A program made the position numbers and the translations under genes. A stretch of 64,000 nucleotides of DNA, taken from Eremomyces bilateralis CBS 781.70 (Eukaryota). Positions 11,683 to 22,397 of the stretch are shown here, piece after piece. Position 1 is the first letter of the stretch; the number at the start of each line of letters is the position of its first letter. The notes under the pieces are model-generated. The model ran no database searches. It saw only the letters and a program-made list of their open reading frames with translations, and was not told the origin of the DNA. The DNA lies in NCBI GenBank assembly GCA_010015585.1, contig ML975150.1; one strand, given 5' to 3'.

Positions 11683-13676
11683 CTTGAATGAGTGAGTGCT
11701 TAAGGAGAGTCTTTGTTGGTCAAAGGCAGATGAAGAGCAAGGAATTGGTTTGCTTTAGTTTAGGTTTTGATTCTCGAAGCTGTGAGCGTAGGGAGTGCTT
11801 TATACAAGTTGTGCTCCTACGGAAATGCACTCTACATCGAGCGCATCCAAGGTATTCCCCATGATATCGAAATTGGCGCGATGCCTGGGAACTAGCACGC
11901 CATGGATTAACTCTCATCGACAATGAACAGTACAGATGCTCTGCTGTCAATTGCCGGATCACTGATCGCTAATTACATCGCGGATGTCATCATCCAGCAC
12001 ATGCGACACGCTGAATATGATACCAGATTGGCGTTTGTCCACCAATAGCCAACTTCTCCGCAGCCCGGTTAGATGGCTTTCGATTCTAGCCATGTTGATC
12101 TCACGATGATCCAATTTATAGCTTGACGGGTTGTCCCTGAGTTTCCACCTTAAAGAATGAATTATCCTATTCGTCTTGCCGACTGATTGGCCCCTGACTA
12201 GGGGGTGGAAACCTCCGTATATTGCGAAACCTGCCTCTTATCTATACAGAAAGCCAAGACTCATTCCCGCTGAAGATCAGGACATATGTGTCGTCTAGCC
12301 CGGCCTTTACACCTTTCCATATATGCCAAACAGGCCAATGGACGATCAAATTTCTATTACTTTACGGCTCACAAAAGCGTTGTAGCGGTTCGGGCGTTAG
12401 CAACTAAAGGCCTAATAAATGAACTTCTATTGCAAAGATGATGCAATTCCCGAGGACTTGGATGGCAAGAAAGGCACTGGTTCTGATATGGTACGACATT
12501 GTCTGGGCATTTCAATCTGAAACCGTCACCCTGAAACCTGCTAACTACAGCTTTGACATGTCCATTATTATGAAGATCACCAATTCACAATGCTCCGATT
12601 GCAGCTAAATCTGCGCTAAAAAGCTTGTATTCACTCAAATCTAGTATATTCCTCTCCACTTGCTTGTTTACCTGTTGGCGGCATCAGGCATGAGATAATG
12701 CCATACATTCACAGAGCGTCCACTTTAGGACCGGTAATGAGTGACTTCACATAAGCACATATATTGCTTGCAGTCCGAGCCTGTTTCGCATGTATAACTT
12801 TCCTACTGGCATCTATGGGTCTTCAATTCGCTATACCACATTTGACGCGGATTGACTTCTACAATAGCGAGAAAATCGCGAGTCGACTTGATCAACACAC
12901 AATCGACATTGCGTGACTTCATTGGTATCCGCTTCGGCAAAATCATATGGAAAGGCAGTCTGGATAGGGCTATGGGTGACGATCATTGTCAACAAAGACT
13001 GCGCGTATGCATTCTGCTCTGGCGAATTGGACGTCTAAGGAAATTCCTGAGATTTAGCCCCTTTAACCAAACTCCGCCCTCTAGCCAACTTGAAGAGTAA
13101 CGATCATACTCGACTCATTGAGCTTTCTTACTACAATTTTAGTCAATTAACTTGAAATATTTTGGCGTCCCGATAAGAATGACCTAATTATTTTCTAAAA
13201 TCACCGGTTTCTTTCTAGTCGTTGGCTTTGTTCTTTTGTCTCTGTCGAGATGCATTCCTCACCATCAAAAGGATGTACCATGGCATTCCGAAACTTGAGT
13301 CCAGATTCTGAACCGAGTGAAGCTCGAGATCAAGTCGCTTTCTCTTCCAGAATGAAACAAAGAGGACTCAAGAGCGTCTTCAGCGGCCTTTCATTGGAGT
13401 TTTTGTTGTGGCCGTTTGCGAACATGATGGCTCCATCGTAGCGTTCATTCACTACCCGAGGACATTATACATTCATTGTATCTTGTTATGTGTCGCCCCT
13501 TCCGAGCCAGATGCGCTTTCAATCCTGTTAATCAGCTCCACTAACATATGGGACTGATTTTTTATCAAATTATGGACAATCTTCATTATGACAGGTCTTA
13601 TTCTTGAAACGGTGTTGAGAAATTACCTCCACACCAATCAGCAGTACGAAGTAGCTCAGGACTGGACATAGCGGCC

Positions 13677-15125
13677 GTGGTTACCTGTGCGGTGTTGAAG
13701 GATGACGTCCATCGACTGGCTAACGTTACAGATGGTACAGCCGTCAATATGACCGGCATTCTGCGAGCTTTCCCGGGGTTCGGAGTAGAGGGACTGAGCC
13801 CGGAAAGTGCGCAGGAGTGCAGATGGATGAGGCAGAATTCATATGGTGGCAGGCCTGGTAGAAACTGCTCTTGGGAGGCCATCGCGGCGTTGATATATGG
13901 ATCGAAGACTCATTGGCAATGGGTCAAGACAGAACATATGGCCTTCGTGGAACGGGTGATGGGTGATTCTAATCACCTACGGTACATTGCATACAGCAGG
14001 CTTCTCCGAACACTGGCCACATCAATTACCACAACAGCAACCGGACCGACCAACCCTGCGATCTCGAATATACGGAGGCTCTTATTTCCCGGTTATTGGA
14101 CGTCCATCGAAATGTGTCCAATCACCTGCGATCGATATAAAATTCAATTAGTGATCTTTGTCCAAACAATAGATAAAACCGGGCTTACATCACGAGAGAT
14201 ATTTTCCGAAGGATCCAACAATGCAGCCCAGCGGGTATTATGGAAAACCAACAACCACTTTGAGCCTATATTCCCCCACTTCCAAGGTAATGATAATCCA
14301 GAAGGGCATAATTGGGCCGTTGGAGAACTCAGGATTGAGCTTCCAAAACTTCGAACGGACACCCATAGAGCTCCCGGGGATCCAAACCAGCCGAACACAC
14401 GTCCGCTACAGCGAAAGATATGGTCAAGTAAAGCCGCGGGTCAGGGTGCAAATCAAGGGCCAACGACCGCGGGAACGTCATGCCGGGTGTTGTCGTATAT
14501 CGTTTAGCCACCGGGGGGGTTTCCCGAGCCCCAAAGGAGGCATTTGTATTAAGTAGCACGCGCAATTCCACTGCCTATCGACAATGACCCTGGTAATAAC
14601 GGTGGAGGAGGCGGAGTCGGAGAGGGCGGAGGTGACGGGAGAGATGGAGGCGGAGGGAATGCAGGCGGAGAAAATGGAGGAGGGGGTTACGGAGGTGGGG
14701 GAGGCAAAGGGGGTCCCAAGGTTCGAAAAACCGCCCAATCGAGATCGAACTCGATCCCAAAAGAGGTGAAGACGGAGAGGCCCCTGGAAGGTTCGCAAAA
14801 TAACCCAATCCCGGTCGATGATAATTAAGCTGACTGCCAAGGGGGAAACGGCAAGAAAAGGCCACCACCAGATGGAGGGGATACGGATGGTCCGAAGAGC
14901 AAGAAGCCAAAACTAGGGGAGGGCGATTGGGATAGAGAGGGCTCCGCACCCCTCAAGGCCAATGCCAAGCCGCTGAGAACTTGGACAAGAGCGGAGCTCG
15001 AAGACGAGACGGCTAAGACTCTCCGGCCCATGGCCCATCAACATAACGTATACATTTACTCGAGGACCCGAAAGGCCATCACAGTTCTTACATTAACAGT
15101 GGCAAACTTGCCGAGAGGGAACTGA
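13677..15125 (+). pseudogene. OTU-like cysteine protease domain plus Gly-rich linker and short C-terminal helical module, interrupted by in-frame stops
   Basis: GRNCSWEAIAALIYGSKTHWQWVK / PGYWTSIEM...RYKIQLVIF / TNNHFEPI follow the OTU Cys-box, W-motif and His-box order. The same frame continues through TAG 14505, TAA 14550 and TAA 14826. The true start is uncertain. Confidence 0.55.
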
Positions 15126-16044
15126 AGTTCCGGCGGTGCTGCATAAAAAGAACCAGAAACAGTAAGCGAAATGAGTAAGACGAGGACTGCGGACAAGAAT
15201 GAATAGACGGTTTTTTAATTCTAATAGGACTCCGATATAAATGAAAGATGATAAGATATATGGTGTATGTCAAACTGAATGTGAGAATCTGATATCAAAT
15301 CTCCAATGGAATTGAAACAAGAACTTTCGCCTTGGCAAGGGGAGACAAACTTCTTCCGCAGTACAACTTCCTGGAGATGTGATATTTCTCGTTCGTGTTT
15401 TGTTTAAGTAAAGGTACTTCGAATCAAGACTCTACGAAGTCCGGATTTCATCATCTAATTACTGCTGTCAACTGGAGGTTACAACTTAGCAGAAATCCGT
15501 CGTTTTTATAAACGCAACTGTGTCACGTCTGCAATCCGGTCAACTCCTCAGCTACCACCACCTCCTCCACCACCACGACATCCCACCAGATCTTCTATCC
15601 TCGTTCCACTACTCCTTTCACCAATCTTCACTCCCCTCCACCCGGAAGTCTCCTATATCTTCCCAATTCTCGCCTTTTTAGGCGAGCCCACATTCGCTCA
15701 TCGTGGCGTCGTTAATCGAATCCCACCTAATTAACCCGCTCCGCGACCTTGGCAGCAGTCCCTTCATCTTTAAGCCGGACGGATCGCTCGCGTGGTCGAC
15801 GACGCTTCGATCTACAGTCCGGTCAGCACGCGAGATATCGGCCAATCTGGTGCGGAATATCCCCGACGAAGTCCTCGCCGTGTTACCGGAACAACTACGG
15901 GGCATATTGAAAGAACCGGCACAACCTCCAAGCACCCTCTCCCGGCTTCTCGAGTCCGTCTACGACCCCACGACCCTCATCAGCATCTTTCTCCTCTTCC
16001 TTACTATCGTCCTCCTCCACCGCCACCTCTTCCCTCACTCCAAA

Positions 16045-17067
16045 ATGTCGTGGTCGTCCCGCCTCCCCTCCTGGGGGAGTCGCTTTAGCCCCTTCAGTCG
16101 GAGCCCTGTATCCCCAGTATCCCCCGCCGAAGTCTCCGAATCCGACTACTCCTATATCACCGCGTCCGATATCGACCGGCCTACCACCCACACAACTAGT
16201 ACCCACACACACCATCACCACCACCACCACCACCACCGCTCTCCCCCCTTCGGCGACCCCCCTCAAGAGGTCCCCGGCGGCTCGCACACCGATGTCCTCC
16301 TCCTAAAACACCGCTCCGTCGCCTATCCCGTGCACTACCCCCGGGACACCATCGCCTCCGGGCATCTCCTCGTCGGCGACATCCGCTCCATGGCCGCCAA
16401 GAAGCTCTCCACCTCCCCCGCCGCCTCCACCGCCGCCTCCCCCATCGACCCCCGCCGCATCAACCTCCTCTACCGCGGCCAAAAGCTCACCAACGACGAC
16501 CTCCCCGCCCGCGACGCCGGCTTCCGCAGCGGCGTCGACCGCTCCAACGAGATCCTCGTCCTCCTCTCCGGCCGACCTGGCAACGACGGCGCCTCCGACG
16601 ACGACGCCTCCATCACCGCCTCCGACGCCGACGCGACGTCCGCCGCATCCAGCCCCAACGCCTCCAAGAAGAAACCCCGCAAAAAGCGCGGCAAGAAGGC
16701 CGCCGCCAAGGCCCGCCCATCGGACGCCGCCAGCGGCGCCTCCACCCCAGCGTCCAGCAGTTCCATCCCTCCCGCGCCGCCGTTCCCGCCCGCTAGCGAC
16801 CCGGCCGGGCAGCTCGCGGCACTCACGCAGCATTTCCGGCAGGCGCTAGTGCCGAGCGCGGAGCGGTTCCTGAGCGCGCCGCCGGCGGACGCGGCGGCGC
16901 GGCGGTTCGATCATAAGCGAATCACGGAGACGATCTTGCAGCAGGTGCTGTTGAAGCTGGATGCGGTGGAGGTGGATGGGCGGGAGGATTTGCGGGCGAT
17001 GCGAAAGGGGTTGGTGAAGGAGGTGCAGGGGTGGTTTGGGAGGCTGGATGATGTGGTGAAAGAGTGA
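16045..17067 (+). CDS. BAG-domain Hsp70 co-chaperone with a ubiquitin-like domain; possible GUG-initiated extension from 15703
   Basis: MSWSSRLPSW...; UBL-like RINLLYRGQKLTNDD; C-terminal BAG domain HKRITETILQQVLLKLDAVEVDGREDLRAMRKGLVKEVQGWFGRLD. Single exon. Confidence 0.88.
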   Translation: MSWSSRLPSWGSRFSPFSRSPVSPVSPAEVSESDYSYITASDIDRPTTHTTSTHTHHHHHHHHHRSPPFGDPPQEVPGGSHTDVLLLKHRSVAYPVHYPRDTIASGHLLVGDIRSMAAKKLSTSPAASTAASPIDPRRINLLYRGQKLTNDDLPARDAGFRSGVDRSNEILVLLSGRPGNDGASDDDASITASDADATSAASSPNASKKKPRKKRGKKAAAKARPSDAASGASTPASSSSIPPAPPFPPASDPAGQLAALTQHFRQALVPSAERFLSAPPADAAARRFDHKRITETILQQVLLKLDAVEVDGREDLRAMRKGLVKEVQGWFGRLDDVVKE

Positions 17068-18000: not shown

Positions 18001-21000
18001 TCACGTCCACTTCCCTTCCTCTCCCCCCTCCGCCTCCCGACACCACCCACTCTCCATCACCTGCCCGATCGTCACCCGCTGCTCTACGTCGCGGTCCAGC
18101 ATGCGCCGCACCAGGTCGATGCTCTCGTCCGACATGACGTACGGCACGCGCAGGTCGTGGTCCATGATCTCGTCGATGGAGTAGAACGGGTTCTCCTTGT
18201 AGATGATCGTGTACAGCAGGATGCCGAGCGCCCACACATCCTGCTCTTTGCCGCGGTAGGAGCGGCCGGCGAGGACTTCGGGGGCGGCGTAGTCTGGGGG
18301 GAGGGATTAGCGGATGGGTTCGGGATGGTTGAAGAAGAAGGAACTAAGAAAATATAGGGGGGACATACCAATCGTCCCGACAAACACATCAAACGGCCCG
18401 TTCTTGAGATACGCCGCGCTCCCGAAATCGATCAACTTGATATTCCCTTCCCCATCCAAGATGACGTTCTCATCCTTGATGTCGCGATGCACCACCTTCG
18501 CCTTCGTATGCAGATGATGCACCGCGCTGGCCACCTGCACGAAGATCTTCCGACACTCCGCCTCCTCCATGTTCACCCGCAGCTCGATGTAGTCGAACAG
18601 GTCCATCCCGGGCAGCCCGTGCGGAACCATGCAAATGTAGTAGTTCACGTCGTCCTCGAAGAAGTCGGACATCTCCACGATGTTCGCGTGCCGCAGCCCG
18701 TCGCGCCGGAGGTAGTCCAACACGTGGATCTCGAGCGGGACGGTGCCGAGGCGACGGTCACGCGTCCACGTGTCCACGAGGATCCGCCGCTTCGTAACGT
18801 ACTTCACGACTACTTTGGAGTTAGTGCGCTTGAAGCGGCAGAGTTTCACCTGTCCGTAGGCGCCTTGGCCCATGTCCTCCAGGACGGCGAATTCCTCGAT
18901 GGACTTCTTGGGCTTCGAGGGGGTGGGGTCGGTGGGGGGCACGATGTGGTTCCGCGCCGTGGCGTCGAGGGACGGGTGATCGCGGGCGTTGGTGACTTCA
19001 GCGGTGGCATGCACGTCGCTGGTGACGGGGGGGCTGGCGGTCGAGCGGAGTTGTTGGGTGAGGAGGGATTTCGCGGGAGAGATGTCGTGATTGAGAGAGT
19101 CGGGAACGCGCTCGTGTGGGAGTCGAGGCGATTCCTCGCGTGGAAAGTCGGAGGAGGCGCGCTCGCTTCCGCTGTCTTCGTGCTTGAGTACGACGACCCC
19201 CTTTTGACCAGGGCTGGGCTGGTGGGGTGGAGTGCCTGGACGGGAGACTAGTGGGGTGAGGGGACCTTCGCCATGGCTTGCGGCGTGGAGTTGGCGGGAG
19301 TAGGTGATCCAGAGTGCGTAGACGAGCTGGGAGTTTGTGTCGGGCGGTTGGATGTTCGGGTCGGATTCATCGACGACGACGTCGCTGACGTGGGAGCTGT
19401 GTGAGGGATGTGGCGAGCGACTCTCTTTCGGAGACGAGCTCACGACGCGCATTTGGCAGTCGACCATGATGTCTGTCCCAACGCGGTGTTTGGCTTTCAA
19501 TCCGTGCGGTCGATTCCACGAGTCCTCGGCGAGTGATGCTGCGCTTGGGCCAAGGTGATCTCGTAAAGAGCGGAGTGCTCGAGCGCGTCGGAAGCTATGC
19601 TCGGGGACCACGATGCCGTCCGTCAATTCGACGGGCTCCTCTTCTTCGATGACCTCGAGGAGACGGCTAAACCCGGGAATGAGCTCGTCGATCGGCAACC
19701 CGGTGGGCGAAGGCTGGCCGAACAAGGCTGATGAGAAGACCGAATTGGCCGATGATACTGTCAGGTCTTCTGACGAGAGCACTACGATGCCGGCGATATG
19801 CGGGAATGATGAGATGCGGAAGAGCGTGTCGTAGGGACCGAGTTGAGGAGTGAGGGGAGTTTGTGGCCGTGAAGTGGCCGTCGCATCTGGCAAGTCTGCA
19901 GGTGAAGTGAATATCTGAACCGCTGACTCCGCGGAAACCGGCTCCATGGTGATGGGAATGTGAATGCCTGTGGTCATCTTCGCCGTGAAGTATGGCCACC
20001 GTTCAATTTGCTCCAGATCCAACGCCCCTGTGTTCGTTCCCTTTAATCGCGGAACGCCCTTCACCAACCGCAATAGGTCCTGTCCGCGCCGAATGCGTTC
20101 GACGCCCCAGATTTTGAGGACGTCGCCCCAGGCGCGTACAACGCATCCCGTTTCGTCCACGGCGACAAAGGCGGCGTCTTCGGCGATCTCTTCTAGCACC
20201 CAAATCAGGCTGCCACGCTTCTCTTTCACCCACAAGCTCGCGGACCCGACGGCACCATTCCGCTTGACGATCGGTACGACGTCACCGCACAACAGCACCC
20301 CTCTGCTATTCTCCTTCGAATGGCGACCATGCAACGGCGGATTCTCCTCTTGCGGCTTCGGTACTAGTTCTGGTGTAGACGAGTCCTTCCCATTGTTGCT
20401 GCGTCGTTTATTCGAGTATCGACTCGGTGGTTTCGACAACAATTTCGCAGTGACCCCGCTACCAAGTGAAGAGAGCAGCCCGCTCGCCGGGCTTTCCTGC
20501 CCTGATCCATTCCCTCCATTCCCTCCATTCCCAGGCGGACTCGCACCCCGACTTGACGCCGAGTCCTGACCCGGATCTTCCAGCTCCGCCATCAACTTCC
20601 CACGAAGCCAATCCCGACGCTCCTCTTTAACGACCTCGAGGATCCCAAGCTTCCGCACCTCGGCCCGCGTCACGCCGAAAACGAGACATGCAAGGTCGTT
20701 CGCCGCAGTGATGGTCCAGGGGCTCGCGGACTCGGTGGTGAAGATGGCTTGGGCGGCGGCGCGGAAGCGCGTTCCGTGGCCGTGGGGGGCGGTGGCGGCG
20801 GTGGCGCCGTGCGATCCGGCAAAGGAGCCGAGAGCTTGGAGGTTGGCGGTGGAGACGGCGGCGGCGGTGCGCGAGGGGGGGTGGACGGATTGGGGGTGCG
20901 TACCGGGTGGCTCGTTGACGTTGTATGGCTGGGCGAGGGCGTCGGCGAGGCGGGATTGGAGTTCGAGGGGGCCGACATCGGTGAGGGTTCGTTTGAGGGA

Positions 21001-22397
21001 AGCCCGGGGTGGGTTGAATTTCGAGACCTTGTGCTGTTCCATATTTGGCGGAGAGGCCTTCGGCGCGGACGAGGATATAGATCGCTCGTCTTCCTCCAGA
21101 ATTACATTGCTCACGGCGCTCATCCGAATCGGTTGGGGATCGTTCAATGCCCCCGAAGCCCCGTCCCACGGCTCCAACTTCTGCAATTCCGGATGTCCGT
21201 CAAGCGACGATGTGGGGCTCTCCGTCTGCATACCAAAGCTTTTCTCAAAGATATTCTCCCCGCTCACATCCGCCGGCCCCGTCAATGGCCCTTGTAGCCC
21301 CAACCCTTGCGCCTCGATCAAATTCGCTCGGGCCAACAGCTCCATCATACTCTGTACCTCCTGATCCCCACTCATCCGGGCCTGCGCGTTCGCAAGGCCC
21401 TGATTCGATGCCGCCCAGCCCATCTTTGCGCCCATGAAGTCGATAGAGCGGCGCAGGACATTCTGGCGGTTATGCAGCAGTTCCTCGGACTGCTGCGCGA
21501 AGGAGAAGGAGTGGAGGGACTCGGAGGGGAAGCGGTTGAGGTCTTCGCTGAAGTGGAGCGCTAGGGAGGCGTGGCCGGGGTCGTGGGCAAACTGATCCCG
21601 CGGCGGGGGGAAGGAGAGGGTCATGGAGGAGGAGCGGGTAGTGGAGCCCGGTGTGCGGGCGCCAACGGGAGTGCGGGCGGGGTGTTGGCGGATGCGGCGA
21701 AGGCCAGACGATCCCAGGCCATGTTCGTGCTCGGGAATGATGGGCGTTCTGGCAGGTAAGGGTACAGTTAGACATGTTATTCCGCGTTCGATTAGCGCCA
21801 TGACATCGTGGCACGGAGGCGATCGAAGTCCGGAGAGCTAGAGCCATTTGTCATACCTTGAAAGAAGGTCCAAACTATTCGCATCCAACGAAAATCGAGC
21901 TCTTGGAATGTCCAGCCCTGTCGCCCCGGCCTGCCTCAAGAGATTGCTGGTGCTTTTGTTCGTTCTGATTTTAATCTCGTCTTGTGATGTGAGGATATGG
22001 GTCGAGGGGGGGTTGGTTTCGCTGATACTCGGTTGTAAGGTGCCTAGAGTCACAAGATCGAAGTAAGCGGGAGGTTCGAATGAATGGTCCTGATGCTGAA
22101 GTATATGTTGCAATTGCTGGGGAAAACTAAGCACAACCAGATCTCATAATCTCGATCGAATCAGGAAACTGAGTACACATGCTCTATGCCACAGTGCCCC
22201 GGATTTGGTTACGAGGCACTAGATTATTCCCCATCTCGTCTGAGCCTATCTCCGCGGGAAGGTCGGATTACCCAGCCCACGGTGGCACCGAACCATCCAG
22301 GCCACGGAGCAAGGCGAGACGGGGATAACCGGTCCTTGGATCCCTCGGTGCATAGTATATAGACGCATCTTCCAAGAAAAGCCGCACGACTCACCAT
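18001..22397 (-). CDS. PAS-domain serine/threonine kinase (Psk1/Psk2/Ppk6 family)
   Basis: PAS-like AQAIFTTESASPWTITAANDLACLVFG. Kinase motifs MGQGAYGQV, RILVDTWTRDRRLGTVPLEIHVL, HRDIKDEN, DFGSA, GTI|DYAAPEV. Proposed exons 22397-22395, 22116-21857, 21748-18368, ~18292-18001; the 5' exons are less certain. Confidence 0.9.

Follow-up and report, generated by a model that had tools for sequence, protein, structure and literature searches.

Within a 64,000-nucleotide stretch of contig ML975150.1 from Eremomyces bilateralis CBS 781.70 (the window), we analyzed a plus-strand gene for a predicted co-chaperone with both a ubiquitin-like domain (UBL) and a BAG domain, the reading frame of which continues well upstream of its first ATG. 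The evidence points to a dual-start arrangement, to which we assign a probability of roughly 60%, where GUG 15703 would initiate an isoform anchored in a membrane and leaky scanning would let AUG 16045 yield a soluble one. In the proposed mechanism, ribosomes scan an AUG-free leader and a fraction of them initiates at GUG 15703, with A at -3 and G at +4, to give a 454-residue protein. This long form would present ~88 N-terminal residues followed by one transmembrane helix (residues 89-109), and would be anchored in a membrane such that its UBL and BAG domains face the cytosol or nucleus. Ribosomes passing the GUG would meet no AUG in any frame over 342 nt, and the remaining ribosomes would initiate at AUG 16045, which lies five codons past the helix in an A-rich context, to give a 340-residue soluble protein without the anchor. 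Initiation at the GUG, production of two isoforms and the choice of membrane are what we infer from the sequence comparisons that follow.

Each landmark that a first-pass annotation of this DNA had placed in the frame was recovered at its position, namely the TAG at 15679-15681, the proposed near-cognate start GTG at 15703-15705, and the ATG at 16045-16047. The BAG frame had been described as open for about 121 codons upstream of its first ATG, and inspection of the sequence reveals 121 open codons containing 0 ATG; the plus-strand frame as a whole runs open from 15682 to the TGA stop codon at 17065-17067, for 461 codons. The strong context ascribed to GTG 15703 is likewise present, with A at -3 and G at +4 (ctcATC GTG Gcg). 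This GTG is the first ATG, GTG or TTG downstream of the TAG, and the sole other near-cognate codon between the two is ATC 15700, with C at -3. Since the in-frame TAG lies eight codons 5' of the GTG, an unspliced start is limited to GTG 15703 or the weak ATC 15700. The internal AUG at 16045-16047, the proposed start of the soluble isoform, is in frame 114 codons after the GTG and has the context ccaaaATGt. As had also been claimed, no ATG occurs in any plus-strand frame from 15380 to 16044 (665 nt), where the last upstream ATG is at 15377. This run comprises the ATG-free plus-strand leader at 15380..15702, which includes a C/T-rich tract at ~15530-15680, and continues past the GTG with 0 ATG in any frame over 15706-16044.

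The N-terminal extension itself spans 114 codons on the plus strand (15703..16044) and had been judged protein-like by eye, a view that homology, codon bias and AlphaFold2 modeling now place on firmer ground. The closest relative, P0002, is a 427-residue protein from a read-assembly set, and BLASTP aligns it to the extension with 63 of 120 residues identical (53%, E 1e-29). The alignment begins exactly where M1 of P0002 pairs with V8 of the open reading frame (ORF), that is to say, at GTG 15703. Identity to P0002 amounts to 72% over the first 18 residues, 53% over the whole extension and 66% over the AUG-started remainder. When the 121-residue upstream translation was searched against 1.84 billion representative proteins, P0002 was returned at E 3e-20, and it alone among the 4 matches at E up to 0.001 belongs to the family. 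A word-indexed search with residues 1-125 returned the window's own protein and no other match. Likeness of the extension at the level of sequence was found with P0002 alone, and other relatives share just the architecture. P0028, a tandem-repeat protein (S-P-I-R-D-L-G-G-H-P) that matches just a short N-P-L-R-D-L-G-like word, was rejected as a relative; P0029 and P0030 match the short N-P-L-R-D-L-G part of the extension in several stretches, and the matches to all three look like chance or low complexity, not kinship.

Codon usage was scored as a log-likelihood ratio (LLR), for which eight long ORFs of the window served as the training set. The extension scores +0.28 per codon in its own frame against -0.32 and -0.39 in the other frames, with a G+C content at third codon positions of 0.69. 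The leader upstream reads as non-coding at -0.12 per codon, the LLR becomes positive at 15703, and the first third of the AUG-started part gives a similar value of +0.24. Homology and codon usage together indicate that the extension is conserved coding sequence, with conservation starting at the GTG, and we consider it very probable that the extension is translated.

These results bear on a reading in which the extension is untranslated in E. bilateralis, whether through a downstream transcription start or a lost start codon, such that only the 340-residue AUG protein is made and the open frame would be a relic. In its favor, several relatives have predicted proteins of ~298 residues that begin at the internal Met, the form in which BcBAG1 has been studied (PMC6467101), and annotated lengths are bimodal, at 297-305 versus 385-421 residues (PMC6013550 Table 1). 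A relic, however, would decay, whereas this extension retains its open frame, the codon bias of the species and 53% identity to P0002, for which even the AUG-started remainder reaches just 66%. The V at the GTG position moreover recurs in other lineages, and we regard a relic as very improbable. Given the same recurrence, we think it unlikely that the GTG stems from a sequencing error or from a private ATG-to-GTG change.

Immediately upstream of the AUG, the first-pass annotation had pointed to a hydrophobic stretch, and T-L-I-S-I-F-L-L-F-L-T-I-V-L-L is indeed encoded at 15973-16017. A transmembrane helix is predicted here at residues 89-109 of the GTG-started protein (15967..16029, plus strand; AlphaFold2 block predicted local distance difference test score, pLDDT, 76-87), with a hydrophobic 17-residue core at 15973-16023 that has a Kyte-Doolittle 17-mer score of 2.45. 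Conservation of this segment was assessed on the proteins of relatives, using a family set of 35 sequences that comprises the window protein and the 34 relatives recovered by word-indexed and exhaustive searches, which is a small sample. The profile search with alignment A1 returned at least 12 proteins, where the best 8000 candidates by shared words were scored. An N-terminal extension is present in 23 of the 35 sequences, and the transmembrane segment expected of orthologues is found throughout, as a hydrophobic 17-mer with a Kyte-Doolittle score of 1.56-2.57 in 23/23 extension-bearing sequences. The helix in the window protein is flanked by a net charge of -1 on its N side and +3 on its C side. 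Across the family, 22 of the 23 sequences have a C-side flank of net +1 to +4, and 22 of 23 have an N-side flank with a net charge of 0 or below. Under the positive-inside rule, these flank charges predict that the C-terminal domains, UBL and BAG, face the cytosol or nucleus.

Every one of the 23 extension-bearing sequences carries a Met at the position of AUG 16045. The distance from the hydrophobic segment to this Met, measured with 19-mer windows, is 0-4 residues in 18 sequences and 10-31 in the other 5. The conserved Met heads a nearly invariant block, M-[SA]..W..GRFSPF, represented in the window by the juxtamembrane motif M-S-W-S-S-R ... G-S-R-F-S-P-F (16045..16095, plus strand), in which alignment A1 shows almost no variation at W117, S129 and P130. 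A further 11 predicted proteins start at the conserved Met, and P0016 starts further downstream. The extensions themselves are nearly devoid of Met. With residue 1 excluded, 3 Met were counted in 2110 extension residues compared with 59 in 6398 downstream residues, based on 20 non-redundant sequences from which P0032, P0033 and P0036 had been left out as close relatives. The few extension Mets come from eukaryote gene models, where they sit far upstream in P0019, P0022 and P0038 and in the dropped P0036. The conserved post-helix Met and the near-Met-free extensions fit leaky scanning.

The same features could also be read as those of a gene that starts at GUG 15703 or nearby and for which only the anchored protein matters, with the internal Met conserved as an ordinary residue and no soluble form produced. 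Near-cognate starts in good context can be sole start codons, and Met is rare in the whole protein (0.9% downstream), so the depletion is partly compositional. An ordinary residue sits poorly, however, with a Met that is retained in 23/23 sequences, lies 0-4 residues past the helix in 18/23 and falls within a predicted disordered segment. A near-cognate codon is also expected to let most ribosomes pass (PMC6821271, PMC7049704), and the next AUG here is in frame, has an A-rich context and follows 342 nt that contain no ATG. We therefore view an anchored-only gene as unlikely compared with dual initiation.

Comparison of the N-termini of relatives provides a second line of evidence for a start at GUG 15703. 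Of the 23 extensions, 14 have the motif [M/V]-A-S at their N-terminus or close to it. V-A-S starts the window protein, P0003, P0013 and P0018, and M-A-S starts P0002, P0017 and P0026; in P0008, P0009, P0021, P0024, P0025, P0031 and P0036, the motif lies 3-54 residues in, behind mutually unrelated sequence. Of 8 residues that precede the V of the motif, 7 are K, T or I. A codon for K, T or I before the V supplies A at -3 and the Ala codon after it supplies G at +4. Two Sordariales proteins, P0025 and P0036, are near-identical from K-V-A-S on and much less alike upstream. Inspection of 10 NCBI eukaryote gene models reveals none that starts with M at the V-A-S motif; P0014 and P0023 start at the internal Met, and the remaining eight (P0001, the deposited protein for this gene, included) have unrelated N-termini. 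On balance, translation likely starts at GUG 15703. A sub-group formed by P0004, P0032 and P0033 shows K-L-A-S instead of K-V-A-S and has its conserved Met 7-14 residues before the W, versus 1-4 elsewhere; a CUG start is conceivable in this sub-group.

A competing account of the N-terminus is splicing, whereby the long anchored protein would start at an AUG in an upstream exon. One version is already deposited. The deposited protein P0001 (P152DRAFT_478681, 482 residues) shows 100% identity over 437 residues to frame 15754-17064, and joining 14584-14720 to 15756-17064 reproduces it exactly. The claim that standard annotation would miss the extension thus stands only in part, where the helix is already contained in P0001 but is reached through an implausible far-upstream AUG exon. 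The deposited intron is 1035 nt long, opens with a weak donor (GTTCGA, preceded by ag) and cuts out 17 codons (VAS...DLG) that belong to the most strongly conserved part of the extension. Although exon 1 (14584..14720, plus strand) has a codon LLR of +0.76 per codon, this high value stems from a purine-rich low-complexity tract, and the exon-1 peptide has no relative in the protein searches and no Pfam family. The deposited 5' exon was rejected as spurious on conservation, given the 17 conserved codons lost and the peptide without a relative, and is regarded as the gene predictor's route to an ATG. The purine-rich tract itself extends over 14553-14828 and is Gly-rich in one plus-strand frame, Glu/Ala-rich in the exon-1 frame and Pro-rich on the minus strand. 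Six upstream ORFs, from 13608 to 15122, contain no Pfam family.

A second version follows from the proposal that the TAG at 15679-15681, which bounds the open frame, also furnishes the AG of a TTTTTAG splice acceptor (15676-15681). A scan for in-frame ATG exon and intron combinations found 33, and only one combines a four-of-four donor match with a pyrimidine-rich acceptor and the retention of all conserved codons. This candidate 8-codon AUG mini-exon lies at 15241..15264 on the plus strand, with donor GTATGT at 15265, acceptor TTTTTAG (followed by G) at 15681 and an intron at 15265-15681. It is the single candidate left for the acceptor alternative, and it is weakened on several counts. The intron would span 417 nt, whereas fungal introns are usually shorter than ~100 nt, and no CTRAY branch motif was seen in the last 100 nt of the intron (15580-15681, read by eye). 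The ATG at 15241 has T at -3 and overlaps a TATAAA sequence, and ATG exon and intron combinations are common by chance under relaxed rules. Among the eukaryote gene models of relatives, no N-terminal peptide upstream of V-A-S is held in common. Taking the mini-exon and the deposited exon together, a spliced upstream AUG is improbable, and initiation at the GUG with leaky scanning to AUG 16045 is the reading we carry forward.

Several observations nonetheless weigh against dual initiation from the GUG and the AUG. First, the spliced alternative from ATG 15241 is in frame and has both a good donor and a good acceptor. Second, chance alone comes close to the open frame and the ATG-free run. A stop-free in-frame stretch of 363 nt arose in 390 of 5000 dinucleotide shuffles (7.8%), and 0 ATG in 665 nt has P = 0.026, which is weak evidence alone. 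The 323-nt leader by itself has P(0 ATG) = 0.134 in dinucleotide shuffles, and two other first-ATG ORFs of the window are preceded by ATG-less open stretches of 124 and 198 codons. Avoidance of out-of-frame ATG within the extension is not significant given the Met-free peptide (P(0) = 0.21 and 0.67 in two synonymous-codon resamplings). Taken alone, the open frame and the ATG-free run exceed chance only mildly, and the observation is judged real because of the homology of the extension. Third, no stable hairpin 3' of the GTG was found that would boost near-cognate initiation (minimum free energy -26.6 kcal/mol compared with a shuffle mean of -27.2; z = 0.19), and the transcription start could lie 3' of 15703. 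Fourth, the family statistics lean in a favorable direction. The internal Met was picked as the last Met before the W/GRFSPF block, a procedure by which the count leans towards finding one, and the Fisher test for Met depletion (p = 4.7e-5) overstates independence since the counted sequences are related. Finally, an M at the start of Logan- or ENA-derived proteins may be the gene caller's rendering of GTG, and the V-first proteins stem from prokaryote-style callers that accept any GTG; P0032 and P0033 have V and M, respectively, as first residue at the same position.

Some features of the upstream region were recorded in connection with the transcription start. A TATAAA at 15236-15241 overlaps ATG 15241, and 300 nt downstream of it the long C/T-rich tract at ~15530-15680 lies just 5' of the TAG and GTG. 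Such TATAAA and C/T-rich sequences resemble fungal core-promoter or leader features and may bear on the transcription start. A transcription start 5' of 15306 would give the leader a 33-codon upstream ORF (uORF; ATG 15306, 15306-15407) and would add a minimal ATG-TGA uORF at 15377-15382. The ATGs at 15306 and 15377 are the last before the 665-nt ATG-free stretch.

An AlphaFold2 model with the family alignment as input (mean pLDDT 71.7) gives the overall layout of the GTG-started protein. Three helices (residues 33-51, 63-70 and 77-86) come before the long helix at 89-109; then follow a beta-grasp at 197-288 and a three-helix bundle at 367-453, each preceded by a disordered linker. The bundle corresponds to the BAG domain (16816..17052, plus strand), which is identified by Pfam as PF02179 (E 1.4e-18, 67.6 bits versus a cut-off of 23.4), by the model and by fold match. 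Its helices occupy residues 367-391, 397-421 and 428-453 with pLDDT >90, and AtBAG1 chain 4hwi_B, solved with HSP70, matches the model at E 8.1e-4. The beta-grasp marks a ubiquitin-like domain (16291..16566, plus strand; block pLDDT ~84-97), and ubiquitin-like PDB folds match it (2kan, E 2.4e-4; 2dzi, TMt 0.79). For the window protein itself, Pfam returned no ubiquitin family; PF00240 is precomputed for relatives P0025 and P0036. Residues E409, D420, R434 and Q442, candidates for the Hsp70-contacting Glu, Asp, Arg and Gln of helices 2 and 3, are invariant in 27/27 aligned sequences with spacings of 11, 14 and 8. Compared by spacing alone, E357, D368, R381 and Q389 of Aspergillus nidulans BagA, at 11, 13 and 8, are close to those of the window protein (PMC6013550). 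BagA is reported to have shown no cooperation with Hsp70s in its authors' assays (PMC6013550). From domain content, the gene is predicted to encode a UBL and BAG co-chaperone acting in Hsp70 nucleotide exchange. A histidine run (H-T then nine H) at 16204-16236 falls in the disordered linker that separates the UBL domain from the conserved Y-S-Y-I-T motif; the closest relative P0002 has just H-A-H-Q at this place.

Membrane-anchored BAG proteins, non-AUG extensions and leaky-scanning dual isoforms are each known, and their combination is new. A full-text literature search returned no paper joining a BAG domain, a non-AUG start and a transmembrane segment in fungi. A close counterpart for the two proposed isoforms is found in Schizosaccharomyces pombe, where cytosolic Bag101 and membrane-anchored Bag102 are encoded by two genes (PMC3907333). 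Bag102 has an N-terminal transmembrane segment and resides in the nuclear/ER (endoplasmic reticulum) membrane with its C-terminus towards the cytosol or nucleus (PMC3907333). By description, the proposed long form resembles Bag102 in presenting a transmembrane segment, a UBL and a BAG domain in that order, and its predicted orientation matches the one shown for Bag102, while Bag101 is the counterpart of the proposed soluble AUG isoform (PMC3907333). Two differences stand out, as the transmembrane segment of Bag102 lies within its first 31 residues whereas ~88 residues precede the helix here (PMC3907333), and one gene rather than two would make both forms. In S. cerevisiae, the BAG-domain protein Snl1 is attached to the ER membrane by an anchor (PMC3962485; PMC6467101). 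The proposed long form is like Snl1 in being a membrane-anchored BAG-domain protein. The Snl1 anchor is an N-terminal transmembrane segment. Unlike the window protein, Snl1 is described as lacking a UBL (PMC3907333) and has 159 residues (PMC6013550 Table 1). No report of an alternative start in Snl1 was found.

With respect to initiation, leaky scanning generates the isoforms of human BAG-1, of which BAG-1L uses a CUG start (PMC6821271) and BAG-1M and BAG-1S use AUGs. The proposed arrangement is similar to that of BAG-1 in combining UBL and BAG domains, one mRNA and in-frame alternative starts of which the first is non-AUG, with isoforms that differ in location (PMC6821271). It differs in using GUG rather than CUG, and the two extensions are not homologous. 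The BAG-1L extension directs nuclear localization, not membrane anchoring. Among fungi, the near-cognate-initiated extensions of cpc-1 are conserved in Pezizomycotina, where A at -3 and G at +4 are the most important positions (PMC5487733). Like that of Neurospora crassa cpc-1, the extension described here is conserved, in frame and AUG-free, and opens at a near-cognate codon flanked by A at -3 and G at +4 (PMC5487733). Fungi often gain dual localization from alternative starts where other lineages have duplicated genes (PMC7049704), and the present gene would be comparable to fungal aminoacyl-tRNA synthetases in placing a targeting element between two starts, with a dual-start gene set against duplicated paralogues elsewhere (PMC7049704). 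The extensions of cpc-1 and the synthetases add regulatory or mitochondrial targeting sequence, whereas a transmembrane anchor would be added here. Signal peptides with an alternative start after them are reported as not enriched (PMC7049704).

Published work on the family itself was also consulted. BcBAG1 of Botrytis cinerea and BagA of A. nidulans are probably the same single-copy UBL and BAG gene as judged from the family alignment and their descriptions, where BcBAG1 is described as soluble with 298 residues (PMC6467101) and BagA has 401 residues (PMC6013550). A term search of the text of PMC6013550 found no mention of a transmembrane segment, start codon or isoform for BagA, and in PMC6467101 the sole mention of 'transmembrane' concerns IRE1 (term search of text). 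In the mBio 2017 paper on Neurospora non-AUG starts, BAG and chaperone are absent from the main text, and BAG, chaperone and Hsp70 are absent from 10 supplementary files, figure files aside.

According to published reports, filamentous ascomycetes carry just one gene for a BAG co-chaperone (PMC6013550, PMC6467101). If the dual-start reading is correct, a conserved non-AUG start followed by a helix and then an AUG would explain how one gene fills both soluble and anchored roles. It would also explain why annotated lengths fall at ~300 versus ~390-420 residues (PMC6013550 Table 1) and why gene models have unrelated N-termini, since bimodal lengths fit an N-terminus that annotation pipelines cannot settle. 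A membrane-anchor case would join fungal dual localization by alternative starts, which has so far been mostly mitochondrial (PMC7049704). Knock-in, complementation and localization constructs built from the first AUG would omit the anchored form. More broadly, a GUG or other near-cognate start at V-A-S may be ancestral and widespread in the single Pezizomycotina BAG gene, such that one mRNA gives a Bag102-like anchored and a Bag101-like soluble isoform with the split set by start-codon stringency, a generalization that we advance tentatively and hold at somewhat short of even odds. Under this generalization, membrane-proximal Hsp70 nucleotide exchange would be tuned in translation, and fungal BAG1 work on soluble proteins of ~298 residues, such as BcBAG1 with its ER-stress and unfolded protein response phenotype, would have lacked the anchored isoform.

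The neighborhood of the BAG locus was also inspected. On the minus strand, a convergent neighbor with a 1176-codon open frame occupies 18307-21837, and its C-terminal part reads like a Ser/Thr protein kinase, with H-R-D-I-K and D-F-G motifs in the translation. Upstream of the BAG locus on the plus strand lies a 299-codon open frame at 13608-14507 that has no Pfam family, and the 12-16 kb region around this frame has the lowest G+C content of the window (0.455-0.508).

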